A stretch of DNA of 64,000 nt from a virus. A program made the translations under genes and the position numbers. Of this stretch, positions 44,476-63,881 are shown piece by piece; positions within the stretch are counted from its first letter, which is position 1, and each line of letters starts with the position of its first letter. The notes under the pieces were generated by a model, which ran no database searches, was not told the origin of the DNA, and worked only from the letters and a program-made list of their open reading frames with translations. Location of the stretch: IMG/VR virus record IMGVR_UViG_3300037474_000152; one strand, written 5' to 3'.

Positions 44476-45570
44476 ATGTTATTGATTGAAGCGTTTGCTG
44501 AATTAGGGCAACTCTTTAAAGAATCTAGCTTTGCCCAATCAGGGGGGCAACCCATAACTGATTCGGAAGTACTGGATTATGTGAATGGTGTTGTTCGCTC
44601 CATGATTCGCGATCGCAATTTATCCGTTGTTGGGGTAACAGTAGACGGCGATACCTTCAAGGGCGAAGCGCGGGTCAAGACCAGCCTCCGGCTGACCAAG
44701 CGATTTAGTTTTGAGATTTCTCCAGATTTCAAAACTTTCCAATCGCTCAACGCCGAAGAGATTGAGAAATTTGCGGAGCCAGTAGAGTTTAGGGCATCTG
44801 GCGGAAAAACCCTCAAGTGTAAAATTCAGCAATGTGGTGGTCGATGCCTTAAAGGTAAAGAGAAGTGTCGCATCACGATGAATGCCGAAGAGCGAAAAGC
44901 TCACGACAAAGCTTTGCGAAAGGTGGGAACCGTGGAAACATCCCTAGCCAAAAAACGACGGGAGACGAAAGAGGCAAAGAACGCTAACATTAATCCTCTT
45001 GCCAGCAAAAACCAGCAAACTGGCAACCGCCAGAATAATGATTTAAAGGCTACCTCCACTGATACTGCTTCAAAAAAACAACCAAGTAAGCTTTTGGCGA
45101 TACAGGACAACAATAAGATAAAGTCTAATTTCGATAGTCAATGGGCAAAAGCTGTTGATGACCTAAGTCTTTCTAGGATTAGTCAAGAAAAACTCAAGGA
45201 TTATAAGTTTGTTTTGAATGAAATTACAGCTTCCGAAGACAAAAAGTATGCAATCTTTGACGACAAAGGGAACATGCAAGCTGTCGCGACTTGGAAGAAA
45301 AAAAACGACTGTGTTTCTATTGGTCATTTGGCAACTGCCCCCTGGAATATATCTGGAGATGACCCGCGAAGTGTTAAAGGGGCAGGAACAAAGGCTGTTG
45401 TGCAAGCCGTCAAAATTAGTCAGCGCTTAGGTTTTGAAGGAAAAATTAGACTAGAGAGTGCTGATACCGCAAAGGCATTTTATGAAAAATTAGGATTTAA
45501 GTCACCCAGCAAAGATGTTTACGTCTTGAGCAAAAAAAATGCAGAAGAATTATTGAAAAAACATGGATAA
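44476..45570 (+). CDS. Virion-region effector 1: shared carrier domain, Cys-rich motif, C-terminal GNAT acetyltransferase
   Basis: MLLIEAFAELG leader; CKIQQCGGRCLKGKEKC; IGHLATAPWN...VKGAGTK...IRLES...AFYEKLGF. Confidence 0.75.
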   Translation: MLLIEAFAELGQLFKESSFAQSGGQPITDSEVLDYVNGVVRSMIRDRNLSVVGVTVDGDTFKGEARVKTSLRLTKRFSFEISPDFKTFQSLNAEEIEKFAEPVEFRASGGKTLKCKIQQCGGRCLKGKEKCRITMNAEERKAHDKALRKVGTVETSLAKKRRETKEAKNANINPLASKNQQTGNRQNNDLKATSTDTASKKQPSKLLAIQDNNKIKSNFDSQWAKAVDDLSLSRISQEKLKDYKFVLNEITASEDKKYAIFDDKGNMQAVATWKKKNDCVSIGHLATAPWNISGDDPRSVKGAGTKAVVQAVKISQRLGFEGKIRLESADTAKAFYEKLGFKSPSKDVYVLSKKNAEELLKKHG

Positions 45571-45629
45571 ACTGATTTCCACTTACGCAATACAAGATAG
45601 GCTTACAAGGAAAACTGTAACTAGTTTGC

Positions 45630-46055
45630 ATGAAAGTAGAAATTAATCTAACTCAAGTCAATGCCATGTTTGCAAAGGTCGATCGCGCATTGGGCGATGC
45701 GACACCTCTGTTCAACTTGATCGGGCAAGAGATGGAGCTAAGTATTGACGATGGGTTCAAGGGAGAGGTTGACCCTGACGGAAGTCCATGGGCAGCGCTC
45801 TCTCCTGGCTATGAAGCCCAAAAGCAGAAAAAGGGATTTATTGCCAAGATTAACCAGCGTCGTGGCGATCTAAGGGGGACGATAGCCTATAGAGCTTATC
45901 GCGATCGCTTGGAGATTGGGTCAAATGTGCCGTATAGTTTGCACGTCCAACGAAAGCGACCCTATCTCTACTCAAAATCAGGTGGATTGGGGCGAAGGGC
46001 TGAGCTTAGGATTGAGCGAGTAGCGGATAATTATATTCAGTCGTTGGTTCGTTAG
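45630..46055 (+). CDS. Phage virion morphogenesis protein (Mu gpG / P2 gpS-like)
   Basis: FKGEVDPDGSPWAALS...GDLRGTI...IGSNVPYS..Q...RPYL. Confidence 0.85.
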   Translation: MKVEINLTQVNAMFAKVDRALGDATPLFNLIGQEMELSIDDGFKGEVDPDGSPWAALSPGYEAQKQKKGFIAKINQRRGDLRGTIAYRAYRDRLEIGSNVPYSLHVQRKRPYLYSKSGGLGRRAELRIERVADNYIQSLVR

Positions 46056-47276
46056 ATGCTATTGATTGAAGCGTTTGCTGAATTGGGGCGAGTTGCTAGA
46101 GAGTATGCGGATAATTTCGCCGAGTCTATCACTGACCCAGACATCTTGAGTGATATTGAGGGCATCATCCAAGCTAAGTACACAGACTGGGATTCTGATT
46201 GCAGGATTACCAGTCTCACATTGGACGGAGATACTTTCAATGGTGAGTTTACCGACAGGGTTAACCTGAGAGTTGTCAAACGCTATGGTTTTACGGCAAC
46301 ACCTGTACGGCTGAGTTTCAAGCTAGTCAACCCTAGCGTTGTTGAAAGCTTTACAGAGGTAGACTTTGTAGCAGGCAAGAAGAAAAGCTGCCCAAAAGGT
46401 ACGCCATGTGGTGGCAGTTGCATCAGCAAGACTAAAACTTGCGTCAGTGAGTTGTCCCCCGAACAACAGAAGGCTCACAAAGCTGCATTGAGAAAAGCTG
46501 GAACCGTTGACACTTCGCTTGCCAAGAAACGGCGAGAGATGAAGGAGGCAAAACGCAACGACAGGCTTGGTATTACAAATATGGAGAAAACCCTCGAAAG
46601 AGGGAAGCGGATGACTGATGACATGAAGGTAGTGGGCAAGCGCTTAGAGAAGGGGTTTAAGGAACTTGAGAAAAAAAAGAAAGAAGCAAAAGTAACTTCA
46701 CTTGATAGCAAGAGAAAGAAAGGAGGTGATAATGCGGGGAAAGAACCAAGTGGGACAAAGAAAGATAACGTAACGTCACTTCAGTCTAAAAGGGCAAGTA
46801 AGTCAGTTAAGGAAAGGCTAGGCAAAGATGATGTTGAGGGAGCCATTAACCAAGTAATCAAAGATGCCGACGACGCCAAGAAAATTGCTAAAGAGGCGGT
46901 TACTGGGCTTGACAAAGCTCAGAAGCGCCTAGAGAAAGTGGCAGATGACGCACTGAAAAAGTATCCAGTCCTTTCCGGGGAAGAAACAACTAAAGGTAAA
47001 AACCCAAACCTTGGATCTAAGGAAAGAAATTTAAAAAACGGCAAATGGCTAGAGTTGCAGACAAATAACCCTGACATCCCCGATTCTGCCAGATATCTCC
47101 TAAATGCAATGGGGAAAGGAATGGCTAGACCGTTTCCGCTAGGGGATAGTAGAACTCGACAATCCGCTTGGCATGAATGGGCTAGAAATGCTCTGGGTGA
47201 AGCTGGCATTGATTACGATAGAAACGGAAAAATGCCAGCCCCTTCGGGTGGAGGTAAGCGAAGCAAAGGGAAGTAG
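46056..47276 (+). CDS. Virion-region effector 2: shared carrier domain, Cys-rich motif, Lys-rich linker, unknown C-terminal domain
   Basis: MLLIEAFAELG; SCPKGTPCGGSCISKTKTC; KAHKAALRKAGTVDTSLAKKRRE. Confidence 0.7.
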   Translation: MLLIEAFAELGRVAREYADNFAESITDPDILSDIEGIIQAKYTDWDSDCRITSLTLDGDTFNGEFTDRVNLRVVKRYGFTATPVRLSFKLVNPSVVESFTEVDFVAGKKKSCPKGTPCGGSCISKTKTCVSELSPEQQKAHKAALRKAGTVDTSLAKKRREMKEAKRNDRLGITNMEKTLERGKRMTDDMKVVGKRLEKGFKELEKKKKEAKVTSLDSKRKKGGDNAGKEPSGTKKDNVTSLQSKRASKSVKERLGKDDVEGAINQVIKDADDAKKIAKEAVTGLDKAQKRLEKVADDALKKYPVLSGEETTKGKNPNLGSKERNLKNGKWLELQTNNPDIPDSARYLLNAMGKGMARPFPLGDSRTRQSAWHEWARNALGEAGIDYDRNGKMPAPSGGGKRSKGK

Positions 47277-47279
47277 ATC

Positions 47280-47720
47280 GTGCCATTCGGAGCCTACGCA
47301 CCAAATCAAAAGCGCTTTCCTGGAGCGCAGATTGTCTACAGCATCCCCTATGACAGTGAAAACGCTGGTACGACAGAGCCAACAATTTTCACGGGCGCAA
47401 TAGCACCCCCTCTAGTTCTCGCCATTGCAAACCAGGAATACTTGTTTGCCGTATCGCAAGCTATGCGAATCGAGTTTTTCTGCCGCACTGACGACGAAGT
47501 TAGATACGCCTACCAGGAAGGTGGAACACATCTCCCCGGTCTTGGCTACCGAACGTTGCGACCAGGAAGCGAGAAAGATCTAAACTTTGGGAATGGGTAC
47601 TTCGATGGCACTCTCTACTTTGCCTCAAGTACGGCTGGAGCAGTTATCGAACTGGAGGTGTGGAGTGCCAACGCGATCAATTTATCGGCAGATGGGGGAG
47701 GCTCCGAGTTCAACCCTTGA
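47280..47720 (+). CDS. Hypothetical virion-region protein
   Basis: GTG start, 146 aa, beta-rich; operon context. Confidence 0.55.
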   Translation: MPFGAYAPNQKRFPGAQIVYSIPYDSENAGTTEPTIFTGAIAPPLVLAIANQEYLFAVSQAMRIEFFCRTDDEVRYAYQEGGTHLPGLGYRTLRPGSEKDLNFGNGYFDGTLYFASSTAGAVIELEVWSANAINLSADGGGSEFNP

Positions 47721-48072
47721 GCTACCCGCCGCATCCAATCTTAGCGGTCATCGGCTTGTGGTCATTGAACGAACCCGCCGCGTGAACTATGCTGACAACC
47801 TCAACCTCACGCATCCTGGCCGTATTATTGGACTGACATTAGGCGCAGCCTCAGTGGGAGAGTTAGCGCTAATTCAACGAGCGGGAAAAGTAGTCGAACC
47901 CAGCTGGAGTTGGATTCCTTCAAGGTCGCTGTGGCTAGGAGCGTCCGGAACTCTAACTCAAGCCAAACCCACAGCAGGATTTTTATTGGTTGTCGGAGTT
48001 GCGTTAGGGTCTAGCGCTATATTGATGGCAAATATTCAATCCGCACACGTTACCTACTTATTCGATGGCTGA
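47692..48072 (+). CDS. DUF2190-like capsid cement/head fibre protein
   Basis: NLSGHRLV...IIGLTLGAASVG...G...W.W...LWLGASGTLTQ..P..GF...VG.A; ATG at 47692. Confidence 0.55.
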   Translation: MGEAPSSTLELPAASNLSGHRLVVIERTRRVNYADNLNLTHPGRIIGLTLGAASVGELALIQRAGKVVEPSWSWIPSRSLWLGASGTLTQAKPTAGFLLVVGVALGSSAILMANIQSAHVTYLFDG

Positions 48073-48592
48073 CAAATACTTAATTCTCGATAGTTCTGGT
48101 GTTGCCTACCGTGAAACCGAGGCGCTCGTTCAAACCCGTGGTGCTCAAGACGGCGGCAAAATTCTTGCGCTTGGCACAGACGGCAAAGTTGATCAGTCGA
48201 TTCTGCCGACTGGGGTGGGACCAGATACCCTTGTTGCCCCAGCGTCGGAAAGCCTAGCGGCCGGTGATTGGCTCAACGCTTGGAACGACAACGGCACGGT
48301 TAAGTTCAGGAAAGCCGACGCCAGTGCAGGCATTGGAAAAAGGGCCACTCATTTCACGCTTTCAGCAACAGCAGCGGCTCAAAACGCCACGGGGTACCCA
48401 ATAGGGTCAGGAACCAACTCCGCGCTCTCTGGTCTGACACCAACTTCCCCCTATTTCTTGAGTAACACCGTACCGGGTGGTGTTACCGCCACTCTCGTCA
48501 CGACCTCCGGACACCTCAACCAATTCCTAGGGTTCGCTCGCAGTGCCACCGCGCTTGAATCTCGTCAGGGCTATGTAGTAATCAGAGCCTGA
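48065..48592 (+). CDS. DUF2190-like head fibre protein
   Basis: ASESLAAGD...RKADA...GLTP..PYFLS..PGG.T...QFLG.A.SAT.L. Confidence 0.55.
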   Translation: MADKYLILDSSGVAYRETEALVQTRGAQDGGKILALGTDGKVDQSILPTGVGPDTLVAPASESLAAGDWLNAWNDNGTVKFRKADASAGIGKRATHFTLSATAAAQNATGYPIGSGTNSALSGLTPTSPYFLSNTVPGGVTATLVTTSGHLNQFLGFARSATALESRQGYVVIRA

Positions 48593-49032
48593 TGAAATTC
48601 CTCACTGCTGGCAATCCTTGGTTTCAGGAGTACGACAATGGGCAACTATTCCTAAGCTGCGTTACCAATCGAACCGCCGCAGCTACACCCCTCACCCAAT
48701 CCGATGGCAGTCAACTGACAATCCCCAACAATACGGCTCTCGGCTTCAACTTCCTAATTGGCGGTCGAGGGACAGGGGGAACCAACGACACTAAGGTGGG
48801 TTACTACCAACTGACGGGGATTGCCAAGAATATCAACGGAACCCTAACCGTAGTTGCGGGTTCGGGCGGGGGACTGACGGGGCGGGCAACTGTCTATCTT
48901 GTGCAAATAGAAGAGGTGTCAGGATGGGATGTCGCCGTCGTGGCGTCTGGCACTACTCTCAGCTTTCAGGTTAGTGGCGATACTGGGACGGTTGTGCAGT
49001 GGAGGGCAGTGGGGCAGTTGTTGTACATTTAG
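48592..49032 (+). CDS. Hypothetical beta-rich virion protein
   Basis: TGATG coupling to the previous gene. Confidence 0.5.
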   Translation: MKFLTAGNPWFQEYDNGQLFLSCVTNRTAAATPLTQSDGSQLTIPNNTALGFNFLIGGRGTGGTNDTKVGYYQLTGIAKNINGTLTVVAGSGGGLTGRATVYLVQIEEVSGWDVAVVASGTTLSFQVSGDTGTVVQWRAVGQLLYI

Positions 49033-49054
49033 CCGCGTCATACCGCGCTTTCCC

Positions 49055-49852
49055 TCACCAATCGCTGCTCAATTCTGGCAACACCCCAGCATCATCAGGA
49101 ATCAGCGTCAGACCATACCATGCGACAATACCACGCTCGTTTAGGCTGTAGCCGTGCCAGTCTACCTCTGACGCATAAACAACCGACTCTCCCGTCGTCA
49201 TCACCACAACGTCTTGCTGGGCTTCCTTGCGGCGATAAGATGCAATCCCCCGAAACAACGCATCGTAGACAAGCTTTCCCATTGCACCCTTGCCGGGGAA
49301 GTCATCTAGCTCACAGCCTCTCTCGCCAACTAACACCTCTTCTAGAACCTCAAGTAAGACACAAGCCAGGGGAAGATTAAAACCTAAAAGGGCAGGAGGG
49401 CGTCTAGCGTTAGCGTCACCTTTGCAACCCTTTGGAAGTGGTAGACTTTTGAACCGGAATAACTTGAAAGTGTCGCGCAATTCGTAACGGTACTTCCTTA
49501 GAGATGCTTCTGATATCTTGATTTGCCAGAATGCACCAATCTGGTCAGCTACGCCTTCAATCGTGACGTTGAACTGCCCAATTCCCTTGAGCGCCAATTC
49601 TCGAATATTGCTAGCAACCCGATGGAATCCCTTTGCTTCCCCTTGCGCTCGTCTCACCTTGGTCACAATTCCAGTAGAGCAACAAGCGCGATAGGTCAAG
49701 GCGTTGAGATAGGCAAACACTACCTTGAGCTTTTGAGTTCGCCAACCACGGACAAGTGAAGTGAAGTGAGTCCGTATGGCGGTTATCTGTGATTTACTGG
49801 GAATTCTTGATTGAAAGCCTTGCGGCATGCTAGCATTCATATTGTCAATCAC
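49055..49852 (-). CDS. Orphan basic protein, possible wHTH (GVADQIG...ISEASLRKYRYEL)
   Basis: 265-aa ORF antisense to the structural operon. Confidence 0.5.
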   Translation of the reverse strand: MIDNMNASMPQGFQSRIPSKSQITAIRTHFTSLVRGWRTQKLKVVFAYLNALTYRACCSTGIVTKVRRAQGEAKGFHRVASNIRELALKGIGQFNVTIEGVADQIGAFWQIKISEASLRKYRYELRDTFKLFRFKSLPLPKGCKGDANARRPPALLGFNLPLACVLLEVLEEVLVGERGCELDDFPGKGAMGKLVYDALFRGIASYRRKEAQQDVVVMTTGESVVYASEVDWHGYSLNERGIVAWYGLTLIPDDAGVLPELSSDW

Positions 49853-50406: not shown

Positions 50407-50435
50407 GATAAAAGCGATGGAGGCCTTAAGGTCGG

Positions 50436-51125: not shown

Positions 51126-51126
51126 T

Positions 51127-51477
51127 ATGCCAAAAACTGTAATTAATTCAACTGCGTACACGATAGACCCGTCAACGTACACAGATAGAAGCGCGGCTTC
51201 TGATGCCAGTGTTGCAAACTTTACTACTGTTTTTGCGGCTGGCACTACCCGAACTGAATTCTTTTTTCAAGCTAGCGACCCTGGCACGGGCAATGATACA
51301 GGCCCATTTTTCTTGTACTACGGCACAGGTGTGGGGGCAAAGATGTTTCGTAAGGTTTTTCCTGGTGAGTCAGTTCACAAAATTAATAACTTAAATAACT
51401 CAGACCTAGGGATCATTTCGGTCAAGTCTGCGATTGCTTCTCAGGGATTTATAGCTTGGGAGTGTACAGTAGCATAA
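51127..51477 (+). CDS. Hypothetical beta-rich protein
   Basis: 116 aa, coupled to neighbours. Confidence 0.55.
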   Translation: MPKTVINSTAYTIDPSTYTDRSAASDASVANFTTVFAAGTTRTEFFFQASDPGTGNDTGPFFLYYGTGVGAKMFRKVFPGESVHKINNLNNSDLGIISVKSAIASQGFIAWECTVA

Positions 51478-54400
51478 TGGCTGTAAATCTTTTTGATTCT
51501 GGAATAGCTAAGCCCGGAAGTTTGCAAAAGCGAGTGGCTCAAAAGCTGCCATACGCGCCCCGTCATCAACGTGCTCGAGTTGTCAAAAGCGCTCAAGCTG
51601 CATCGGTATTTCTCAACCAATCTTTTACGGCAAGTCAAGTTATCGATCTGTTAGGGCAATGCCGTTGGTTTAGCTTTGAGGAATACGTCACTTTCAAAGA
51701 TGTGTCAGCTACGCAACGAACCAACTTTGACACGATCAATACTGAGACTGTTCGAGATGCAAATTTTATTTATAGGGCTGACGTTCAAGTTAAGGCTGCT
51801 AGGGGTTTAGTCAAAGGAGAACTGTTAGTTTCTCCTGCTACTGGAGGGAATCCAGCTTTTCTTCGGGTTGATGGCATGTCTTTGGTAGGCGATCGAACGT
51901 TTGATATTTCAGGGAGTTTTTTATTAAATTCTAATTTTTCGATTATTACAGGATTGTCTGTTAATTATCTCGATGATCCGGCAAATACTTATCCAATGCG
52001 TTTAGTAGATGCAACAGAATTATCGATTAGATATGCAGCATACAATTCAATTACTTTTAAGGTAGGATCAACAACAATTACGGGTTCTCTCACAGAGTCT
52101 CAAGTCCCCTATAAAAAAGCTCGTCATTTCGTGACAACACGTCTTGATTCTTCGGGAATGGGACTTTGGATTAATGATGACAGTATTGCTGTAAGTTCCA
52201 CGAATACACAACTGTCTACGCTAACAAATTTTCAATTAGGTTCCGGATTAAAGGGAACTGTCTCTGATTTGATTTTTGCTCCAGCATTAACAAGCAATGA
52301 GCTAAAGGCTATTAGAACTTTTTTAGCGATTTACAAAGACATAGAGTCAGCAACTTATCAAAAATCTCAAACAAGTCTTATAACTGATTCATATTCTCGA
52401 ACATTTTTACCTTTTGGGAACACGGCAACCAAGGGAAAGAGTTTTACACAAAATGCCGATGCTATTTGCGTAGACAGCGACGGAACTCTGTATACAGCAG
52501 GAATTTACGACGAAGACGCTCATGCATGTGGAGCCTATACATCGGCTGGAATAAATAAAGGTATTTTTCCTTTTGGAGCCGTAGCCTCTTCTCATGCAGT
52601 AGCTACGGATGCAACCTACGCTTATTTTGCTGGAAGCGTGGGATCGACCTCCGGACAGTTTGGAGTAAGAAGATACAATAAAACAACTTTTGCTTTAGTA
52701 AATTATTCAAGTGTCAATGGTTTTCCTACTAGTACGTCAGCAGGAACTTCCTCCGATCCGTCGTTCTATCCAATTAGAGGACTTTCTGTTTCAGGTTCAG
52801 AAATCTATGTCTCCGATGTTCAGGCTAATAAAGTAAAAGTTTATAACACAGGAACTGGCGCTTTTGTTCGTGAATTTGCTTGTACAAACCCCTACCAGTC
52901 AACTATCGATGGTTCTGGAAACATTTGGGTAGTGCAGAAAATTGCGGGAGCGGGATTGGTTACGTTATTTTCTTCAACAGGCACTCAGCTTAAGCAAATT
53001 ACAACTGTTACGAAACCTTCAGGAGTAGCGATTAGTGGCACAACTCTTTATGTGGGAGACAACGGAACGAAGCAAATTCGTATTTTTGACGTGTCGAGTA
53101 CTCCTACTCAATCCTCTGTAATTGGTGCTTCTGTATTTGCTAGCTCCCGTCCAGTAGCAAGTCGAGGAAAAATTACGCCACTCTTTTGGAGAGAAATCAC
53201 TGACATTGATATAGATGGATCTGGTAATCTCTACGTATCAGATAGCCGATATGATATCGGAGCAAGAGTTGAATCTTATAAACTTAGCGATAGTTCACGA
53301 AACTATCAATTACTGGGATTATTATTTGTAGATGTTTGTGACATCGATCCAGACGACCAAACGATTGTATATTCTCGTTCTCATAAATTTAAGCTCAATT
53401 ACGCTAATAAAACCTGGTCTTATGATGCGTGTCTTGTAAACTCGGACAAATTCACTACGGATATCCGCCCCGATCATATTGGCAACAGCTTTGTCAATAT
53501 TGTTAATATTCTCGGTGATAAATTTTTATTACTTTCTAAAGCAACAAATAGTACTGAAGCTATTTTTGCTTTGTTTAGATTTAATAAAACATCGGAAGGA
53601 GAAACAGCCATTCCCTGCTTAACTTATAACTATTCAACAGGAAGTTATTGGGTAGATGGCAATGGAGATGGAATCGTTCAATCTGGTGAGCAAAACGTTG
53701 CACTAGGTCTACCATTTGGAACAATAGCTTCTAACGGTAATTTATTAAGTATCTCAGTATCTAGTGGAACCTTTATTCTTAAAATAACGCCAGTAGCAAG
53801 TCTAAATGGTTATGGTGTTCCGGTTTATGACTTTAATTCTGTTCAGTCTTTTACAATTCCAGGGACAGCTAACTTTGCTAATGTCAAAAGACTCATAGAA
53901 TCTAACGGAAGAATTTTTATTTCCGCTACTAGTAACTCTGCAAATACAGATGGTCGGTTTGCTGGGGAGATTATAGCTGAATATAGGTTGCAATCCAATC
54001 TAGTCAAGATCAGAGAATTTAAGATTCCCAACAACGACAATCTCTTGCACGTATCAAAAAACATAGCAGTGCAAGATGATTTACTGTTTGTCAGTTATTT
54101 AACTTCGGATGAGTACTATTACCCTAAGACGTTTAGATTAATTAGAGTGTTTAATCTATTAACAGGGGCAGAAATAGCAAAAACTCATCTATCTCCTTTT
54201 CCAGAAAATCTAAGCTGGCTGGACATCGACGAACCGATTCGAGTCAAAAAATCATCGACTTACCCTAATCAATACTTGATTGCCGCACAAGATGTGGCTT
54301 ATTTACAAAATCAAGTAACAATCTTGGACTTTCAGCTAAATGTCATTATTGGATACGATCCTCTAACTACTGCTTTTGTAGATCGAATAAACCGTAGTGG

Positions 54401-55109
54401 CGGGAGTATTTCTAGTAACGACATATTATCGGTTAATACTTTTATTGGATCAATACGTTCATTGATCGACGCTGGATTAATTTACGAGTTCGATCCATTT
54501 GCGGGAGATGATGCAAAGTCCGCCATTTGCAAACTGATCTATCAAGGTGCCGATCCTGAGTTTCTAACTAATACTAGTTACAGTCAATCTCCTGCAGGAA
54601 AAGCTCTGTATGCCCGAAATAAGGGCTTTACCATGCTTCGAGGCTCGGATCACAGCTATCTTGATACAGGTGTTCCTGGTAATAAATACGCAACAGTTTC
54701 AAATGGTGGATTAGGAGTTTATGTTCGTAATTGGATAGATAATACTGGAACTGCTATCGGTTCAGGACAACTATATATTAAACCTCGAACAACAGGAGGA
54801 ACCCTAGTAAACTATGCTGCCAATGCCACTAGGGGAACTAATTATTTTGTTGAAACTTTTGGGTTTGGTTGGTATACAAGTAATTCAGACTCTGCATATC
54901 GAAACGGTATTTTTCAGGCGAGTTTAGGTCAAGAAGCAATAGATACAGCTAATATTTCTATTGGACAAAGAATCGGACAACTGGATACAACTGCATCTGA
55001 TTTGGGATGCGCTTGCATTAAAAAGAACTTGACGGCGTCTCAAGAATTAACTTTGTACAATGCTGTTCAAACTTTGATGACGGCTTTTGGTCGTAATTCC
55101 ACTCCATAA
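51477..55109 (+). CDS. Large virion-associated protein: LamG-like domain, NHL/beta-propeller repeats, C-terminal lectin-like domain
   Basis: Repeats such as IDGSGNIWV, GVAISGTTLYVGD, IDIDGSGNLYVSD; TAATG coupling gives start 51477; AT-rich. Confidence 0.65.
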   Translation: MAVNLFDSGIAKPGSLQKRVAQKLPYAPRHQRARVVKSAQAASVFLNQSFTASQVIDLLGQCRWFSFEEYVTFKDVSATQRTNFDTINTETVRDANFIYRADVQVKAARGLVKGELLVSPATGGNPAFLRVDGMSLVGDRTFDISGSFLLNSNFSIITGLSVNYLDDPANTYPMRLVDATELSIRYAAYNSITFKVGSTTITGSLTESQVPYKKARHFVTTRLDSSGMGLWINDDSIAVSSTNTQLSTLTNFQLGSGLKGTVSDLIFAPALTSNELKAIRTFLAIYKDIESATYQKSQTSLITDSYSRTFLPFGNTATKGKSFTQNADAICVDSDGTLYTAGIYDEDAHACGAYTSAGINKGIFPFGAVASSHAVATDATYAYFAGSVGSTSGQFGVRRYNKTTFALVNYSSVNGFPTSTSAGTSSDPSFYPIRGLSVSGSEIYVSDVQANKVKVYNTGTGAFVREFACTNPYQSTIDGSGNIWVVQKIAGAGLVTLFSSTGTQLKQITTVTKPSGVAISGTTLYVGDNGTKQIRIFDVSSTPTQSSVIGASVFASSRPVASRGKITPLFWREITDIDIDGSGNLYVSDSRYDIGARVESYKLSDSSRNYQLLGLLFVDVCDIDPDDQTIVYSRSHKFKLNYANKTWSYDACLVNSDKFTTDIRPDHIGNSFVNIVNILGDKFLLLSKATNSTEAIFALFRFNKTSEGETAIPCLTYNYSTGSYWVDGNGDGIVQSGEQNVALGLPFGTIASNGNLLSISVSSGTFILKITPVASLNGYGVPVYDFNSVQSFTIPGTANFANVKRLIESNGRIFISATSNSANTDGRFAGEIIAEYRLQSNLVKIREFKIPNNDNLLHVSKNIAVQDDLLFVSYLTSDEYYYPKTFRLIRVFNLLTGAEIAKTHLSPFPENLSWLDIDEPIRVKKSSTYPNQYLIAAQDVAYLQNQVTILDFQLNVIIGYDPLTTAFVDRINRSGGSISSNDILSVNTFIGSIRSLIDAGLIYEFDPFAGDDAKSAICKLIYQGADPEFLTNTSYSQSPAGKALYARNKGFTMLRGSDHSYLDTGVPGNKYATVSNGGLGVYVRNWIDNTGTAIGSGQLYIKPRTTGGTLVNYAANATRGTNYFVETFGFGWYTSNSDSAYRNGIFQASLGQEAIDTANISIGQRIGQLDTTASDLGCACIKKNLTASQELTLYNAVQTLMTAFGRNSTP

Positions 55110-55252: not shown

Positions 55253-56686
55253 ATGTCAGATGGACTGAAGTGGTTAGAGATATTCAGAGCGGGAAAGCGG
55301 ACTTCGTCTAACGGCGTTACTCGCGACTATTCCACTAGCGACCTGGATCAGGCGGTTGAAACTTACAACCCGGATAGCTTCAAGGCTCCACTTATTATTA
55401 GCTACCCAGCGCATCACACTGGCTCTTACGCAGATAGCGAATTACACAAAAGCCAACTTGCCTTTGGCTATCCCGAAAAGCTCAAGCGCATAGGTGACAA
55501 GCTTATGGGCGGCTTCAAAAAGATTTCTCCCAAGGTAGGCGAATGGATTCGCAATGGAGAAATCCTGGGGTTTAGCTCTAGCTTCTATCTGCCCAACTCC
55601 TTATACAATCCTTACCCTGGCAAGTTGTCTCTTCGTCACGTTGCGGGTTGCGGCGTCGATCCGCCAGCCGTAAAAGGAATGGAGTTGCCCGACAACTTCA
55701 GCGATGCTGAGCGGTCTGACGCGCTTGTTTACTCCCTTGATGAGTTTGAGGACTACTCAGAAGAGCAAGACGATACGGTCGAGTTTGGATTGGATGCTGA
55801 CGACGAAACGATAGAAGATGCCGTACTTGGAGCGAAAGTATGGAATGCCCTTAGGAATGTCGCCAGCTTCACGGGAACGTCTGATTTCATGGCGTTTGGT
55901 GACGGAGGGGTTGCCACTTTATTTAAAGATTTCTATCAACGAACGCGCGATCGTTTCATTGAAGAAAAAGGGGTAGAAGAAGCGGATAAGACTTACCCCA
56001 CTTACGTGCTAGACCAACTAGCTATCATGACTTCCCAGCCTTCCCCCTCATTTGCCACATGGGAAGACATCAGAGTATTGCAATCCCAGATTAATGAATT
56101 GAGGGTGCCGTCCGGTGGTAGTGACGGCAAGGACAATCTTGGGGAGTTTTTAAACGATTACAGCGAGGAGGATGACGAAGAGTTTATGCCCAGTGAAGCA
56201 GAATTCGAGGAGATGAAAGAGGAACTCTCCGACTTGAAGATAAAGGTCAAGCTGCTTGGTCAGGAAAACGAAAGGCTGACCAGCGAAAACGTCAACATCG
56301 CACAACAGCGTGAAACTGACCGAGTAACGGCATTTTGCGAACAATTGGTACGCGATCGCAAGCTTCTCCCTACCCAAAAAGACAAGGAAGTCCGCTTCAT
56401 TCTTTCCCTGGATAGTACCAACACTGCCGACTACGGAGAAGAGGGAACGCTAACACCCCGCGACGCTTATATGAATAAGCTTTCCGGTGGTCGGGAGCTG
56501 TGGTCGAACAAGCAAATGCCAATCGGTCCCGAAGATGCCCCTGCGTCATTTAGGGAGCGGGTGCCAGATGGTTTTGACGCCAAGAGCACGGCTCAGCACC
56601 GGCAGGTTCAGTCTTATGCCCAGGAACACAGCATTAGCTATTCCGAGGCTATAGATGCACTTCAAAAAACGGGAGCGCTGGACTAA
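55253..56686 (+). CDS. Mu gpI-like prohead protease/scaffold
   Basis: LEIFRAGK...DLDQAVETY.P...AP...H...AFG...FSSSFY...LRHVAGCG..PPAVKGM; acidic coiled-coil C-terminus. Confidence 0.88.
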   Translation: MSDGLKWLEIFRAGKRTSSNGVTRDYSTSDLDQAVETYNPDSFKAPLIISYPAHHTGSYADSELHKSQLAFGYPEKLKRIGDKLMGGFKKISPKVGEWIRNGEILGFSSSFYLPNSLYNPYPGKLSLRHVAGCGVDPPAVKGMELPDNFSDAERSDALVYSLDEFEDYSEEQDDTVEFGLDADDETIEDAVLGAKVWNALRNVASFTGTSDFMAFGDGGVATLFKDFYQRTRDRFIEEKGVEEADKTYPTYVLDQLAIMTSQPSPSFATWEDIRVLQSQINELRVPSGGSDGKDNLGEFLNDYSEEDDEEFMPSEAEFEEMKEELSDLKIKVKLLGQENERLTSENVNIAQQRETDRVTAFCEQLVRDRKLLPTQKDKEVRFILSLDSTNTADYGEEGTLTPRDAYMNKLSGGRELWSNKQMPIGPEDAPASFRERVPDGFDAKSTAQHRQVQSYAQEHSISYSEAIDALQKTGALD

Positions 56687-57044: not shown

Positions 57045-58043
57045 ATGGTCGTAGAATTTGTCCGCGAGGGCATGAATCGAAGTGAGGTGAAGGCTGGGTA
57101 CAACATGGTCCTCAGCGCTTACGCCACTGGCTACACTAACGCTGAATTTAAAGGACGCTTTCTTTCTCCCTTTGCTGAGGTCCCGGCACGAACGGGGAAT
57201 ATCGTTCAGTTTGACGACTCGGCATTTGAGATAGCAGAAGATGACAGAGCAGACGGTGGTCCTTTTAACGAAATTCAAAGCGGATACGAAGGCTTACCTT
57301 ACAGCTTGAGAAACAAAGGGCTTGCTTTTAAAGTTCCTGTCGAGCACGAGGAACAAGCGCAAACCGCCAACATCAATCTAGGGAAGCGTGCCAGTAACGC
57401 ACTAATGATGCGTTCGGCCCTCAATATTGAACTCGAACAAGCCCGCGTTGCTCGAAACCCAGCCAATTACAACGGGTTGGTTATTGCTCTTTCGGGGGCT
57501 TCTCAGTTTAGTGACTCAGGTTCTCGCCCCGATCAAGTTGTGGAAGTTGCAAAGCTTGCGATCGCATCTCGCACTGGGCGCAAACCCAACGTGATGCTGG
57601 GCGGAGAGCAAGTTACCTCGGCGCTGCGAACTCACCCGTTAATCCGTGCTAACTTTCAGCCGACTAGCTCAATGTCCATTACGGACGAGATGCTGGCTCA
57701 GTATTTCAACGTCGATCGTTACGTGAGTGGCGAAGCGATTTGGCGTAACCCAGCAACTAGGGCTTTGGAGTTTATTTGGGGCAAAGACTTAATTCTTGCC
57801 TACACCAACCCCAAGGCATTTGAAGGGAACGAAGGTCGAATCGCTTACACAACCGATAACGACATTGACAGAATGGCGGAACCCAGCAAGTTCTATACCT
57901 ACGTCCTTAAAGGTGTTCCCAAGGTGAGCAATCCCTTCTGGTGGGAAATGAACGATAGCTGGTACTACAAAATTCGCTTTGAGCGCCAGCATTTTGTCAC
58001 TGGCATGGATTCTGGTTATTTGGTTCAAAACGCAGTTGCATAA
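57045..58043 (+). CDS. Major capsid protein
   Basis: 332 aa after protease and cement; TGRKPNVML...ALRTHP.I...LAQYFNV..Y..GEA...WGKD.ILAY. Confidence 0.85.
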   Translation: MVVEFVREGMNRSEVKAGYNMVLSAYATGYTNAEFKGRFLSPFAEVPARTGNIVQFDDSAFEIAEDDRADGGPFNEIQSGYEGLPYSLRNKGLAFKVPVEHEEQAQTANINLGKRASNALMMRSALNIELEQARVARNPANYNGLVIALSGASQFSDSGSRPDQVVEVAKLAIASRTGRKPNVMLGGEQVTSALRTHPLIRANFQPTSSMSITDEMLAQYFNVDRYVSGEAIWRNPATRALEFIWGKDLILAYTNPKAFEGNEGRIAYTTDNDIDRMAEPSKFYTYVLKGVPKVSNPFWWEMNDSWYYKIRFERQHFVTGMDSGYLVQNAVA

Positions 58044-58067
58044 GCGCGGTATAACGCGGTTTTAAAA

Positions 58068-58918: not shown

Positions 58919-59607
58919 TGAAGTTTTCCGACTTTGTTTTGGCAATCAGACGGTTCAATCCTGCACTGACCCAAGCTCAAGCAAGCAAGGTTTGGGAAAC
59001 TTTCTTGCCTTTTCCACTCCAAGAAGCTATTGAGGAACGCATCGCCGTACTTAAAGTGCGATCGCGCAATCTTAAGGGCGACCCTTACGGGGGTGAGTCC
59101 CAAGCTCGGTCGCAATCCCAGCACTGGGTTGCCTATCAAGGCAGTAGTTATCCCGATTCTGGCGCAGCTCCTTTGCCGGGGGAAAGCTTCTCTCAGTCGA
59201 GAGAGCTGACGTTTGAGCACTATGTCGAGGTTGAAGACCTTAGACGGGATTACGAGAGAGCGCTGCTCATCCACGAATTAATTAAAGGGTTGCTCGCAGG
59301 GTATAGACCTTGCCACATCAAAGGGGTGAGGGGTCCAATGCGATTGGTTAGCGACGGACTTGTCTCCGCACGTACCGAAAACGAAACGGTCTATCGATAC
59401 AAGGCAACGTATCAGATCGGTTGCCTTTGGAGGCCTGCTGATATACCAGGGCTGTTTACCGTCGATCCGGATGCCGGGGATGGGTTTATTCCCGAGGGGG
59501 TGTTGGTTGGGATATTGCGATCGCCCGTCGATCGAGTGGGCGAACTGCCCGTAAGTCCAAAGTTTACTGATTTGAGGGTAGGGGAAGATGGTAGCAATTC
59601 TGGTTAA
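58918..59607 (+). CDS. Tail terminator/completion protein
   Basis: Between adaptor and sheath; TAATG coupling. Confidence 0.55.
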   Translation: MKFSDFVLAIRRFNPALTQAQASKVWETFLPFPLQEAIEERIAVLKVRSRNLKGDPYGGESQARSQSQHWVAYQGSSYPDSGAAPLPGESFSQSRELTFEHYVEVEDLRRDYERALLIHELIKGLLAGYRPCHIKGVRGPMRLVSDGLVSARTENETVYRYKATYQIGCLWRPADIPGLFTVDPDAGDGFIPEGVLVGILRSPVDRVGELPVSPKFTDLRVGEDGSNSG

Positions 59608-61105
59608 CCGAGGAACACCAGGTTATGAGTTATTGGTTGATTCGGCGGGTCCACAGACACCCGTCGTTGCAGTCTACAGTAGGTGCTACTTACTAATTAC
59701 AGCAACGGCGACTCTGACCAATCCACTGGAATTTGTACCGGTGGGAAGTATGGATGATTTTACCAACCTGTTTGGTTCATCTAGCGCTTTAATCCTCAAT
59801 AGCGTTGAGAACTACCTAGAGAATTTTGACCAGGGTTTGTACGTAGCGCGGATTGTTCCAGCCAGCATAGCCGCCGTAACAATTGGCACGCTCACCGCCG
59901 CTGCTACTTATACAGTGACAATCAACGGAACCCCAATCCCCTTCACTCTTGATGCTTCCCCCACAATGGCTGAGGCTGTATTAGCAGCCATAACGGCTAT
60001 CAACAATACCGAGGCGACAAACCTTGCAGTCGAAGCTGAGCCTAACCTGAACACAGATGGCACGCCCAATTATTCCACTGGGGTGTTTCGTTTGCGCTCC
60101 AAAAATCGTCAACCCTTCACGGCAACGGCAACTGGCAACGTCACTGTTTCGGCTGTGACCACCCCCACATCTCCTCAATACTGGGATTGGATTGCAGCTT
60201 TCAAAGAAACCGCCCGACTTTACGACGATGAAGCCCTTGGCTTCCTGTGCGCTCCTCAAGCTTTTTACGACACTCTTAACCAATGGGAGCGGACCCAAGT
60301 CGGCAACAGTATGGCGGAGTATGCCCGTGCCTTGCGCTGGGTTGCACTTCTCGATCCACACCAGCCGAGCGTTATTGACCACCCACGCAAAGCCAAGGCT
60401 GATGCAGCCGACTACGTTGCACCTCAAGGACACAGCTACTACTCCTATCCCTACTTCATCGACCGAGATTCTGACTATGTTGCTCCCTCGACAGCGATTG
60501 CCTCTGTGGGACTTCGCCGCTATTACGAACAAGGAATACAAGAGCCTCCCTGCGGCCCGCGTTGCGTTCTGAACGGCATATCAGGGGTGGCATACAAACT
60601 GGATAAGGCTCAGAAGATTGACCTAGCTGAAGCAAGTGTCAATATCAATATCTTTGAGCGCGGACGGGGGGCGATGCCTTACGACGATCTGACCCGCTCA
60701 ACCAATCCAGCGTTTGAGGCAATTAACGGGGTAGTGATTCTCAACAGCTTTGTAGAAACAGCCGAACGCACATTCAGGGCCTCTGACCTTATCCACACCT
60801 CGGTAGACAGCAGGGGTAAGTTTTACCTGCAAGTCCAACTGCTGCTTACTGGGGTTTGCCAACTGTTCTATGCGGCTGGTTGCCTTTATGGCATTCGGCC
60901 GGCTGACGGTTATCGAGTCGAATGCACGCCAGAGATGCAAAATGCTACAAACCTAGAGCAACGCATCGTCCAAGCGCGGGTGTTTCTTGTGCCAGTACCA
61001 ACAGCTAGAAGATTGCGGATTTATGCCTACCGAGTGGCAATCGATCAGATAAACGCCGCAATCGCAATCGTCGGCGGTTCTACCCAGTTATTGAACAACG
61101 CTTAA
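59588..61105 (+). CDS. Contractile tail sheath protein
   Basis: TPGYELL, VAPSTAIA, EPPCG...L.G, SVNIN, C..EMQ...LEQ..V.ARVFLVPVPTA..L.I. Confidence 0.9.
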   Translation: MVAILVNRGTPGYELLVDSAGPQTPVVAVYSRCYLLITATATLTNPLEFVPVGSMDDFTNLFGSSSALILNSVENYLENFDQGLYVARIVPASIAAVTIGTLTAAATYTVTINGTPIPFTLDASPTMAEAVLAAITAINNTEATNLAVEAEPNLNTDGTPNYSTGVFRLRSKNRQPFTATATGNVTVSAVTTPTSPQYWDWIAAFKETARLYDDEALGFLCAPQAFYDTLNQWERTQVGNSMAEYARALRWVALLDPHQPSVIDHPRKAKADAADYVAPQGHSYYSYPYFIDRDSDYVAPSTAIASVGLRRYYEQGIQEPPCGPRCVLNGISGVAYKLDKAQKIDLAEASVNINIFERGRGAMPYDDLTRSTNPAFEAINGVVILNSFVETAERTFRASDLIHTSVDSRGKFYLQVQLLLTGVCQLFYAAGCLYGIRPADGYRVECTPEMQNATNLEQRIVQARVFLVPVPTARRLRIYAYRVAIDQINAAIAIVGGSTQLLNNA

Positions 61106-61120
61106 GGGAGGGGTTAGCAC

Positions 61121-61558
61121 ATGCCTACACAATACGATCCGGCATCAGAAGCCGAGTTTAGCGTTCAACTGGGTGGCGATTTCGGGCAATACTTTTTTAC
61201 TAAGTTTTCGGGAGGCGATCGCTCAAGAGATTCGACCAAGTATCCGCTAGCCGATCGCAACCAGATGGGGAGTCTTGTAGGGCTGAGAAGCTATGGTGAC
61301 ATCAAACTGGAAACCGAATACATCCCCGAAATCCATGACGAACTTGACGACAAACTCTCTCGTTGGTGTGGCGAGAACCTGATTGTTCAGATTACGCCTC
61401 TCCAGCGTTGCTCCATTAACCTAGAGCAACGAGGAAGAATCAGAACCTATACCGGATGCAAGCCAAAGTCTGAGGCGTTTGGAGCTGTTGATCGGGGAGG
61501 TGGTAGACCTTCTGTTTTTTCAATTGAATTTACCGTCCAAGACATGGAATCGCAGTAA
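61121..61558 (+). CDS. Tail tube protein
   Basis: 145 aa after sheath; YFFTKFSGG...YGDIKLE...YTGCKP. Confidence 0.75.
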   Translation: MPTQYDPASEAEFSVQLGGDFGQYFFTKFSGGDRSRDSTKYPLADRNQMGSLVGLRSYGDIKLETEYIPEIHDELDDKLSRWCGENLIVQITPLQRCSINLEQRGRIRTYTGCKPKSEAFGAVDRGGGRPSVFSIEFTVQDMESQ

Positions 61559-61559
61559 C

Positions 61560-62195
61560 ATGCCAAAAGTTGAACTTTTATCAGACGCGGATAGCGAATC
61601 TCCAAACAACCACCCCTCCACCCCAGTAGAAGAGAAAACCCTATCATTCCCCTTGATCGGACAACCAGGGGAGGCAGTATTCAGGCTCCCCACTATTGGA
61701 AATGCGATCGCAGTTCAGTCTCGATATCCCAACCTTGAAGCAATAGACATCTGTCGAAAAATGGCAGAGGATGCGTTGATTAGCTGGGGGGATAACACCT
61801 CACTTCCTCCTGATGACGAGATTGACATGGCTGACGATTACGCAATGGTCGAACTATTCATGATTGATGGATCGACGGGGGAGTTTGACGTATTGCCGGA
61901 CAAAAGCCTTGCTTGCCAGACAGCCAAGGGCTTACTAGTTCTGCGCCGCCCAACAAGGGTCGATGCTCGTAAGGGCGAAAGCCTTTCGGCTCAAGTGCTC
62001 AAAGGCAAAGTAAACGCCATAACTTCAGATCTTATGTGGGCATGCGACTTGTGTGTCAAGTGGTGGAACGAAAGCCGCAAAATCATGCCTGGAGATTTTA
62101 ACGATCTACCTATCTCTGACTACGTGAACATTCAGGCGGCTTTGCGCTCCTTTTTTCCGCGTCGTACCGCGCCTAACAGAACAGGAGTATCTTGA
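61560..62195 (+). CDS. Tail assembly chaperone (short form)
   Basis: After tube; LRRPTRVD...DFNDLPISDY.NI..AL.SFF; slippery T6 near the end. Confidence 0.7.
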   Translation: MPKVELLSDADSESPNNHPSTPVEEKTLSFPLIGQPGEAVFRLPTIGNAIAVQSRYPNLEAIDICRKMAEDALISWGDNTSLPPDDEIDMADDYAMVELFMIDGSTGEFDVLPDKSLACQTAKGLLVLRRPTRVDARKGESLSAQVLKGKVNAITSDLMWACDLCVKWWNESRKIMPGDFNDLPISDYVNIQAALRSFFPRRTAPNRTGVS

Positions 62196-62337
62196 AGCGA
62201 CGTATCTCATGAATGGCGGCAACTTCAGCGGGTTCGAGGCTTACGAGCGACTGCCTGTAGAAGAGTGGCACGAGATGCTCAAAGTTCACAACCGAGTGGT
62301 AGAGCGGCACAACCGAGAGGTGGAAGGACGACAGTAA
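62151..62337 (+). CDS. Frameshift extension of the tail chaperone (gpGT-like) in the +1/-2 frame
   Basis: After TTTTTTC: FFRVVPRLTEQEYLEATYLMNGGNFSGFEAYERLPVEEWHEMLKVHNR...Q*; no upstream start with an SD. Confidence 0.65.
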
Positions 62338-63881
62338 TGCTAACGGGTGAGGCGACTGTATTTTCACAATTAGGTCAAGCCTTTAAGGGGTGGGTTTCGT
62401 TTGCCAGTGCCACAGATGACATAACAGACCCCGGCACCCTCGAAGAAATCAAGGGAATACTGGAAACCCAGTATAGTGACGGCATCACAAGTATAGACAA
62501 AGCCTACATAGATGGGGAAGACATCAGAGGTCAGTTTAGCGACCAACTAAACCTGCGCCTAGTGAAGCGCTACGCATTCCGCATCTCTGAGGATGACATT
62601 GCCTACAAGATGCTGAACAGCAAGGACATGGCAGCGTTTAACGAGGTGGATTTTGCGGCAACAAAGCCTGCGTCAGGGCGCAAAGCTCCCAATTGCAAAC
62701 CAGGAAATACTCGCTGTGGAGGTCGCTGTATTAGAGGGGAGGCTATCTGTAGGCCAAAGAATGACCAGGCAACCAAGGAAAAGGTAAAAGCGGTTAAGGA
62801 GAAAATCAAGTCAACTGAACCCAAGACAAAAACGACAAAGACTAAAAAGACATCTAATTCGGAAGAGTCAGTATCAGCTCAAGCCAAGCCAGTCAAAGAG
62901 GGTCAAAATGACCAGGCAACAGGAAAAACTAAAACACCTAACGAAAAATTAAAAGCAAAAAGTACTGCCAATAAAAAGCTAAAGCCAGAATTAGATGAAG
63001 ATGGATTGCCTTCTGCTGATGCTTTGTCTAGTGCTAAAAGGCAATCGCTGGGGGCTAACAGTTACAACGGAGAGCTAATAGGAAAAGCCAAGATCGGAGA
63101 AAAAGAATATTTTGTAAAAGGAATGCTTGGAGGAGAAAAAGCTGTTAATAACGAAATTGCCGTCTCAAAACTCGCAAAAATAGCAGGACTAGAAGAACAC
63201 TTCTTATCCGTTAAAAGCTTTGATATGGATGGCAAGCCAGCAGTGGCAACCGATTTCGTTAAAGGCAAAGACACTGTTGATATAGTGCCTAGAGAAGCCT
63301 TTAAAGGTGTCCCAGACAAAAGAAAAGAAGAATTGCTAGCTTTTGATTATCTTATTGGGTCACAAGACAGAAACCCCGCTAACGTCTTCGTAACAGACAA
63401 AGGCAAGATATTAATGATAGATAATGAATTTTCCTTAAAAAACAAAAGTGACAATTACAGCGACTTTGCCGAAGCTTACAACGTCGTGGCGGCTTCACGA
63501 TTTATCCAGAGCGATAACAAATTAAAACCAAGTAAAGATTTTATTTCTCGAATCAATAAAAACAAGAAAGAAATGGTTGAAGAGATGGAGTCAAAAGGGA
63601 TTGACTCCACGGGGTTTGTTAATCGACTGGAAAAAATGAAGTCAGGGGCAACATGGAAAGAACTACTTGGAGATGAGCAATGGGATGCATTGCCAACAAC
63701 AAGAGACTTAAGAAAACTAAAAGCGGAAGCTAAGCAGAAAAAAGAAGAGTTCGATAGAAGGATTGCTGAAGCACAAGCAAGATACGCCAACAGCGCAAAG
63801 CCCAAACCAGCTACTGCTGCTACGGTAGACGGTTTGTCGCTTTCGGCAGAACAAGTAGCTAAACTAATGGCAACACTATGA
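62337..63881 (+). CDS. Virion-region effector 3: shared carrier domain, Cys-rich motif, C-terminal HipA/PI3-4K-like kinase
   Basis: MLTGEATVFSQLGQAF leader (TAATG coupling); NCKPGNTRCGGRCI; YFVKG, NEIAVSKLA, FDYLIGSQDRNPAN, IDNE. Confidence 0.75.
   Translation: MLTGEATVFSQLGQAFKGWVSFASATDDITDPGTLEEIKGILETQYSDGITSIDKAYIDGEDIRGQFSDQLNLRLVKRYAFRISEDDIAYKMLNSKDMAAFNEVDFAATKPASGRKAPNCKPGNTRCGGRCIRGEAICRPKNDQATKEKVKAVKEKIKSTEPKTKTTKTKKTSNSEESVSAQAKPVKEGQNDQATGKTKTPNEKLKAKSTANKKLKPELDEDGLPSADALSSAKRQSLGANSYNGELIGKAKIGEKEYFVKGMLGGEKAVNNEIAVSKLAKIAGLEEHFLSVKSFDMDGKPAVATDFVKGKDTVDIVPREAFKGVPDKRKEELLAFDYLIGSQDRNPANVFVTDKGKILMIDNEFSLKNKSDNYSDFAEAYNVVAASRFIQSDNKLKPSKDFISRINKNKKEMVEEMESKGIDSTGFVNRLEKMKSGATWKELLGDEQWDALPTTRDLRKLKAEAKQKKEEFDRRIAEAQARYANSAKPKPATAATVDGLSLSAEQVAKLMATL

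Follow-up and report, generated by a model that had tools for sequence, protein, structure and literature searches.

Why should three genes of one phage, placed among its head and tail genes, encode proteins that begin alike and end in unrelated domains? The question is raised by a stretch of 64,000 nucleotides (nt) from the IMG/VR record IMGVR_UViG_3300037474_000152 (hereafter the window, the whole of which is phage DNA), in which we call the three genes C1 (44476–45570), C2 (46056–47276), and C3 (62337–63881), all on the + strand. We consider it probable that their products are virion cargo of cyanophages and form part of a family not yet catalogued, in which a constant carrier brings a variable enzyme into the particle, ready for the moment when the DNA enters the next host. 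A virion location is suggested because the carrier is fused to portal or MuF proteins in some relatives, because one family member was found in the virions of the cultured phage CL131, because the carrier shares its leader with MuF, and because the tail repertoire is that of packaged effectors. The three genes are also tightly coupled to late structural operons: C1 starts 57 nt past the stop codon of the MuF gene, the start of C2 abuts the stop codon of the gpG gene, and C3 overlaps the end of the tail assembly chaperone region.

The shared N-terminal module

C1, C2, and C3 share an N-terminal module of ~150–170 amino acids (aa) and then diverge completely. The first ~135–172 residues could be aligned with MAFFT, and the alignment contained 35 invariant columns, including the leader, ITD, DG, LR..KR..F, N, F.E.(V)(D/E)F.A, and four cysteines. 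A shared N-terminus of ~140–170 aa in three open reading frames (ORFs) had been claimed in the initial annotation of this DNA, and the alignment bears this out. The same annotation described a block common to C1 and C2 followed by abrupt divergence; this block, KAH..ALRK.GTV.TSLAKKRRE.KEAK, was indeed found after the Cys cluster as a basic helix with 80% aa identity.

The proteins are built to a common plan. In C1, the module covers aa 1–172 (nt 44476–44991) and is followed by a basic linker and a putative GNAT-like tail at ~aa 215–364 (nt 45118–45570). In C2, the module also covers aa 1–172 (nt 46056–46571), a long Lys/Glu-rich helical linker follows, and the protein ends in a conserved tail of ~76 aa (nt 47046–47276). 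C3 consists of the module (nt 62337–62855), a basic linker, and a tail at ~nt 63048–63689 that is predicted to be protein-kinase-like (HipA/PI4K-like). The start of C3 was taken as the ATG at 62337 and not the GTG at 62265, which places the leader at the extreme N-terminus, as in C1 and C2; the public gene calls agree and give a 514-aa form of C3 (P0011). Within the module, a leader helix (MLLIEAFAELG... in C1, 44476–44529; 46056–46109 in C2 and 62337–62396 in C3) is followed, after a folded domain, by a linker motif of low model confidence (F-x-E-V-D-F-V-A in C2, 46350–46373; 44770–44796 in C1 and 62637–62660 in C3) and by a four-Cys knuckle (C-x5-CGG-x-C-x6-C in C2, 46389–46442; 44818–44868 in C1 and 62694–62750 in C3). 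In all three proteins, the portion before the linker motif is acidic, with an isoelectric point (pI) of 4.3–4.7, and everything after it is basic (pI 9–10.3).

The leader is not confined to the module. A six-frame translation of the 64 kb contained its pattern at exactly four places, all of them N-termini: those of C1, C2, C3, and the MuF (Mu gp30-like) minor head protein encoded just upstream (43349–44419, +; leader at 43349–43390; Phage_Mu_F, E = 3.5e-13). The leaders of MuF and C2 have 13 identical residues with synonymous codon differences, and the conservation is therefore at the peptide level. The leader is also present in the MuF of a related phage. In Nodularia phage kac65v161, gp021 (L008, 14764–15720) has its own version of the leader (..LFxNL..Y...LDF.EF) without the module, like the MuF of the window. 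Judging from these sequences, the leader looks like a signal that can be separated from the module and that co-varies within each phage.

We also compared C1 and C2 along their length. The identity was mosaic: 75% aa and 81% nt in the leader, 80% aa and 72% nt in the basic block, and 11–40% aa in the beta domain between them, with ~45% nt identity outside the leader and the basic block. Between the paralogues, the beta domain is only ~30% identical. This mosaic conservation indicates that the paralogues are old and that the two short C1/C2 segments were kept by selection or conversion, and not by recent duplication. A recent cassette exchange between C1 and C2 was considered and rejected, because the nt identity merely tracks the aa conservation.

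Family and fold of the module

A profile built from the three N-termini, as had been proposed initially, was used to search 1.84 billion representative proteins. It detected 233 clusters (at 50% identity) with E ≤ 1e-3, of which 136 had E ≤ 1e-10, and the likeness of C1–C3 is therefore not a chance match. The four knuckle cysteines were invariant in 100 aligned members. The profile was essential for detecting the family: a single-sequence tblastn search of phage records showed one weak place per Nodularia phage, and all the copies were visible only by profile search. No relative was found when genome contigs were searched with one protein or with the three-sequence alignment.

The structure prediction, also proposed initially, gave a confident AlphaFold2 model on the family alignment, with a predicted local distance difference test (pLDDT) score of 87.5. 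In this model, a leader helix (residues 3–18) and a conserved N-F-A-E turn precede a helix packed on a four-stranded antiparallel sheet (residues 28–97); a low-confidence linker then leads to the C-x5-C-G-G-x-C-x6-C knuckle and to two long Lys/Arg-rich helices. Of the linear motifs in the family, the one in this linker, F-(S/A)-E-(V/L/I)-(E/D)-F-A, is the best conserved. Two members were of unusual composition: nine stretches of P0133 (1210 aa) match the beta-domain part of the profile, and P0006 (675 aa, L001:10001–12028) has the complete module twice in tandem, ahead of an HExxH domain.

The module region had no match in Pfam (E ≤ 1), PHROGs, or NCBIfam, and Foldseek against the PDB gave nothing at E ≤ 1e-3. 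In the AFDB clusters, the sole significant rows look like relatives of the module; the top row, which is 38% identical, is a 489-aa PARP-domain protein matched at its N-terminus. With VIA-align, the best Z for the beta domain was 5.6 (latexin, cystatins), below the level considered meaningful for this tool. Homology to cystatin, NTF2, or LolA-like proteins was rejected because these are generic alpha+beta rolls (Foldseek against the PDB, VIA-wide, AFDB clusters, and Atlas). The Atlas search gave template modelling (TM) scores of 0.45–0.50 to the N-terminal domains of AEP primases, and homology was again rejected, since the shape match is weak and the catalytic residues are not conserved. Our literature searches found no description of a carrier module of this kind. 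The carrier domain is uncatalogued in the libraries searched, while the strategy, as in MuF toxins, polyvalent proteins, and T4 Alt and internal proteins, is well known.

The variable C-terminal tails

The C-terminal tails of 149 representatives fell into 55 groups, defined by BLAST clustering of the final 170 residues, because whole-tail single-linkage clustering joined 90 proteins through low-complexity linkers. The largest groups were GNAT (14 members, including C1), ADP-ribosyltransferases (ARTs; 14), and an HExxH domain (14), followed by a repeated unrecognised domain (11), DUF3626 (7), and DnaJ (5). The Pfam catalogue of the tails comprised ART/ADPrib_exo_Tox/ART-PolyVal/PARP, GNAT, DUF3626, DnaJ, InPase, kinases, Hva1_TUDOR, ParB_N, and Peptidase_M90. 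The profile thus matched no named family and the C-termini of the relatives are highly variable, both as expected from the initial annotation.

That annotation had assigned a GNAT domain to the tail of C1, an unrecognised domain to C2, and a HipA/PI4K-like kinase to C3, and these assignments held. A profile of the 14 homologous tails including that of C1 matched solved N-acetyltransferases at E 3e-5, and these tails contain motif A of the GNATs (Q/R-x-x-G-x-G/A), with G-A-G-T invariant or nearly so; a GNAT-like acetyltransferase is therefore supported at the family level as the prediction for C1. In the alignment of C3-type tails, D-R-N-x3-N and I-D-N are invariant, which corresponds to the catalytic-loop D..N and the metal-binding D of kinases. 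All the top Foldseek matches of the AlphaFold2 model of this tail in the PDB were kinases, led by the HipA-like kinase CtkA and by RNase L (E 1.1e-4) and including PI4KIIalpha (2.7e-4), so that the predicted fold supports a HipA/PI4K-like (protein-kinase-like) enzyme. The tail of C2 had no usable match in Atlas or Pfam, and among the 149 representatives it was shared solely with one other cluster, P0013.

The tails of C1 and C3 have a guanine-plus-cytosine (GC) content of 0.39–0.40, compared with 0.47–0.50 in the carrier parts. The 64 kb contain 45 HIP1 sites, which point to a cyanobacterial host, and none of these sites lies in the C1 and C3 tails. The AT-richness of the tails had been recognised initially and stands; the absence of HIP1 sites, which had been cited with it, is true, but we rejected it as evidence because there are too few sites in 64 kb.

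Small ORFs were found behind many of these genes. A small ORF on the + strand (63878–64000) overlaps the stop codon of C3 (ATGA) and is open at the end of the window; it is a candidate partner or immunity protein. In many other family members, an ORF of 53–102 aa lies at or just past the stop codon (e.g., L001:12018–12326, L021:5873–6109, L022:11479–11640, and L024:7840–8040). Possible roles for these ORFs are inhibition of the enzyme tails, immunity to them, or a chaperone function. The small downstream ORFs of C3 and its relatives matched no recognisable immunity family, and C1 is followed by gpG instead.

Such ORFs would be expected if C1–C3 were polymorphic toxins or factors in competition that do not travel with the DNA but are produced late, set free at lysis or passively carried, and act on neighbouring bacteria as proposed for MuF toxins, with the small ORFs as their immunity proteins. 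The tails are polymorphic, ART, kinase, and GNAT are typical toxin domains, and the AT-richer tails suggest horizontal acquisition. However, the proteins have no secretion signal or known trafficking domain, the position behind C1 is taken by gpG and not by a small ORF, and the portal fusions described below place the module inside the capsid. We regard this explanation as unlikely; it is also compatible with virion packaging and does not exclude it.

Evidence pointing to the virion

In 19 representatives, the module was internal and not N-terminal. It followed a Portal_Mu domain in at least 10 of them, sometimes after an InPase domain, and the architectures included portal-InPase-module-350 aa, portal-module-ART, and a portal-InPase-module-DUF3626 type. 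The Phage_Mu_F domain was present in two module-bearing representatives. A domain attached to the C-terminus of a Mu-type portal is inside the prohead, and these architectures are direct evidence for a position within the head. The Mu portal gp29 is present in the virion without its last 124 residues, which the authors attributed to protease I (PMC11915804). As gp29 loses its C-terminal extension in the virion, the analogy suggests that this extension offers a natural place, or slot, for cargo set free within the head. On the portal of the window, this slot is occupied by InPase; in the relatives, it holds the module and an enzyme.

The family recurs in several copies in cultured cyanophages, most of them among structural genes. 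Five were found in Nodularia phage vB_NspS-kac65v161, three of which lie in the interval between the genes for terminase and prohead protease, and PaV-LD contains four complete modules together with several matches to the Cys-knuckle part only. In Aphanizomenon phage CL131, a full module was detected in ORF048 (profile E 1e-15) and knuckle-only matches in ORF044, 045, and 047. When CsCl-purified CL131 particles were analysed by liquid chromatography–tandem mass spectrometry, ORF044 to ORF048, all five of which are basic, were among the 23 virion proteins, and ORF048 had the top score in the table, with 105 peptides and 55% coverage (PMC6293099, Supplementary Information Table 5). A distant family member is thus present in purified particles (PMC6293099), in line with the presence in virions that had been predicted for C1–C3.

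Basic proteins with the four-Cys knuckle and a basic helix, and without the alpha/beta domain, are encoded before the tape measure gene in CL131 (L010, 39276–48140) and PaV-LD (L018, 35630–40205). The knuckle and basic helix appear to form an independent sub-module.

The knuckle alone recurs near the tape measure gene of CL131 and PaV-LD in several basic virion proteins. This would also fit a different explanation, namely that C1–C3 are structural or assembly parts, in which the module is an internal histone-like DNA-condensing domain or a tail-lumen domain (zinc knuckle and basic helices) and the enzyme tails act in assembly or on the cell envelope. The basic character of the regions after the knuckle (pI 9–10) and the position of C3, downstream of the tail chaperone gene and ahead of where the tape measure gene is expected, are consistent with this. 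Against it, ART, GNAT, DnaJ, and protein-kinase-like tails have cytoplasmic substrates, and the copy number and the identity of the tails vary freely between related phages, unlike those of essential structural parts. A purely structural role is therefore improbable in our estimation.

A third explanation is that the proteins are not associated with the virion, and are late cytoplasmic regulators or morons for abortive infection or superinfection exclusion, with the module as a zinc-dependent DNA-binding domain. The zinc knuckle and basic helices could bind nucleic acid, the beta domain has the weak resemblance to AEP primases mentioned above, and some relatives lie on the opposite strand in baseplate gene clusters, as morons do. 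This is difficult to reconcile with the portal and MuF fusions, the detection of the CL131 member in virions, the leader common with MuF, and the consistent placement inside structural operons, and we consider it very unlikely.

We therefore return to virion cargo as the preferred explanation. The initial annotation had proposed a cassette system of head-packaged effectors. The variety of the tails and the portal fusions support this proposal, except that the low identity of the beta domains does not indicate recent swapping.

A recurring motif and a proposed mechanism

The linker motif of the carrier has counterparts elsewhere in the head. Seven head proteins of the window together contained eight (V/I)(D/E)F sequences followed by a small or basic residue: in the portal domain (VEFV at aa 147), at the portal/InPase junction, in MuF (VEFA at aa 93), in the prohead protease (VEFG at aa 176), in C1, C2, and C3 just before the knuckle, and in the major capsid protein at residues 3–6. 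The rough expectation for these seven proteins is ~0.6 occurrences, and none of the 18 other window proteins examined, one of which has 1217 aa, contained the motif. The sites in the protease, capsid protein, portal junction, and carriers are conserved in two related phages, and the major capsid protein begins with M-V-V-(E/D)-F-(A/V) in the window (57045–57062) and in two relatives (L019:18293 and L020:14279). In the portal fusions, similar motifs occur at successive domain boundaries. The junction in the portal of the window reads ...ESIDFGAIIDR (IDFG at nt 39787–39798), and the same LDFG-IIDR start precedes InPase in unrelated members of the module family.

Because the motif lies in a flexible linker that separates the acidic from the basic half of the carrier, it is a candidate prohead-protease site or a scaffold-docking motif, between which our data do not distinguish. 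If it is a protease site, the following course of events can be proposed. The leader helix held in common with MuF, or covalent fusion to the portal, would put the protein in the prohead. The prohead protease would then cut at (V/I/L)(D/E)F-small, splitting the acidic leader and alpha/beta domain (pI 4.3–4.7) from the basic remainder (pI 9–10), which consists of the zinc knuckle, the Lys/Arg helices, and the enzyme. The basic part would remain with the packaged DNA and leave with it at infection. After entry, the GNAT, kinase, and C2 domains would modify host targets for takeover or counter-defence. C1, C2, and C3 themselves would thus be packaged, cleaved, and injected, the injection being argued by analogy with known systems.

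A broader version of this scheme can be formulated, in which the leader and acidic domain are a removable pro-region and the motif is a site for the Mu-type prohead protease, so that the two together form a portable cargo-loading code for Mu-like heads. This motif would mark the portal–cargo junction, MuF, the protease itself, and every carrier, and any protein could be loaded as a C-terminal extension of the portal or as a free fusion to the leader and module, released in the head, and delivered with the DNA. We put forward this code tentatively, as a possibility that may well prove wrong. If it is true, it would be the Mu-lineage counterpart of the T4 capsid targeting sequence (CTS).

Several observations weigh against the reading of C1–C3 as cleaved and injected head cargo. 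The evidence for cleavage is conservation of the motif, and a cut at residues 3–6 of the major capsid protein would remove almost nothing, which fits docking equally well. ORF048 of CL131 is a distant member encoded beside the tape measure gene, and could be in the tail and not the head; C3 likewise precedes the expected tape measure gene, PaV-LD and CL131 also have members at that position, and several PaV-LD members are encoded beside its tape measure gene. A tail-lumen location may therefore apply to some members, and either compartment, head or tail, could be the correct one. The relatives on the strand opposite to the baseplate genes indicate that late co-expression is not universal. Taken alone, the tail of C1 scored 17 bits against Pfam GNAT (cut-off, 20.7), and that of C3 scored 23 bits against HipA_2 (cut-off, 27) and was also below the threshold for PI3_PI4. 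Finally, a complex predicted between the portal (aa 1–478) and C2 (aa 1–110) scored 0.00; the partner folded poorly in this prediction, which is not evidence either way.

Comparison with known systems

The family resembles the MuF toxins (the Mu gp30 and SPP1 gp7 family; PMC5576092, PMC3482391) in that a constant, head-associated N-terminus carries a variable C-terminal enzyme or toxin. In both cases, the genes lie near the portal gene in the head module of temperate or Mu-like phages, and the repertoires of tails overlap (ARTs, GNATs, and metallopeptidases). However, C1–C3 have no match to Phage_Mu_F (PF04233) in Pfam at E ≤ 1, and the phage has a separate MuF. The initial view that the carrier is not MuF was therefore correct. 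The module differs from MuF in fold, as an acidic alpha/beta domain with a four-Cys knuckle; it would operate alongside MuF, with which it shares just the 13-residue leader, and it has so far been seen in phages of cyanobacteria.

With the polyvalent proteins (PMC5512222), the family shares effector domains carried on the portal or MuF that are predicted to be packaged and injected, and InPase, ART-PolyVal, GNAT, and ParB_N are common to both. In contrast to the 2–15 domains of polyvalent proteins, C1–C3 have one tail each, but the long portal-InPase-module-tail relatives do qualify. Pfam gave no polyvalent-associated or other family for the module region of C1–C3.

In phage T4, a short N-terminal peptide common to unrelated cargo proteins targets the prohead core and is removed by the prohead protease at a short motif, and the basic mature cargo, including the ADP-ribosyltransferase Alt, is ejected with the DNA (PMC9026906). 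Our proposal has in common with this a leader shared by different proteins and a predicted basic part after the motif. In contrast to T4, the head is Mu-like with a gpI-type protease, and the carrier is a folded module of ~150 aa and not a 10-aa peptide. Cleavage and ejection, as described for T4, are predicted here for C1–C3.

A further parallel is provided by the enzymatic proteins that are incorporated in the head and injected by phage P1, as may be the case here. The Dar proteins of P1 are large enzymatic antirestriction proteins, reported by Piya and colleagues in 2017 to enter the head in a defined order and to shield the DNA once injected. They were not detectably related to C1–C3 in sequence or domains; the single link is a PHROG match of the InPase part of the portal to the DarB-like family.

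Genomic context

The window is part of a contig of ~82.5 kb. A Mu-like morphogenesis block extends on the + strand from the large terminase gene (36835–38313) through C3. It includes the gene for a Mu-type portal (Portal_Mu, 38359–40197) fused to an InPase domain (39796–40185; Pfam E = 3.5e-27, polyvalent type). Between the portal and MuF genes are a KilA-N/Bro-like regulator on the − strand (40521–41300; phrog_129, with a weaker match to the BstA-like family) and two tandem overlapping GIY-YIG homing-endonuclease genes (42340–43316). Nodularia phage kac65v161 has a KilA-N gene at the same place. The Mu gpG-like virion morphogenesis protein (45630–46055, +) is encoded between C1 and C2, and downstream of C2, among several small genes, are two adjacent paralogues (47587–48592), both phrog_4368. 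The head gene block also contains a 1217-aa NHL/SGL beta-propeller repeat protein (51456–55109) with a GC content of 0.39, no HIP1 site, and no PHROG match, which looks like a foreign insertion.

The Mu gpI-like prohead protease (55253–56686, +), the presumed processing enzyme, is followed on the same strand by the scaffold (from 56686), major capsid protein (from 57045, with an adaptor gene next), sheath (from 59588), probable tube (from 61121, by position and with no family match), and tail assembly chaperone (from 61479), next to which lies C3. At the left end of the window (1–4500) are baseplate J and a collar-type fibre gene (Collar and CBM_5_12 domains), followed by DnaB and a Dam-like methylase. 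Because the window starts at these two genes, the assembly is a circular permutation, and the tape measure gene has to be located past 64000. An endolysin gene is located at 34316–35611.

Significance

The window adds to the family a Mu-like myovirus context, a leader shared with MuF, a link between portal extensions and the processing of the Mu portal, and published virion proteomics for a member. A hidden Markov model of the module provides a handle for annotating hundreds of late proteins now called "hypothetical," and the tails of the family are a list of enzymes that may modify the host. The module family is present in several cultured phages, so that the cargo hypothesis is directly testable, and if the targeting and cleavage code holds, it would offer a way to load foreign proteins into Mu-like heads.

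Phages that pre-load enzymes can attack the host ahead of all phage gene expression, which is central to takeover and to escape from defence. Iyer et al. (2017) remarked on the paucity of polyvalent proteins in cyanobacteria, and the known carriers (MuF, portal fusions, polyvalent proteins, and the T4 CTS) are reported to be scarce there (PMC5512222). The module family may fill this gap. Our results suggest that phages of filamentous and bloom-forming cyanobacteria (Nodularia, Planktothrix, Aphanizomenon, and Calothrix prophages) use a carrier of their own with a large repertoire of exchangeable enzymes, many of which are ADP-ribosyltransferases.

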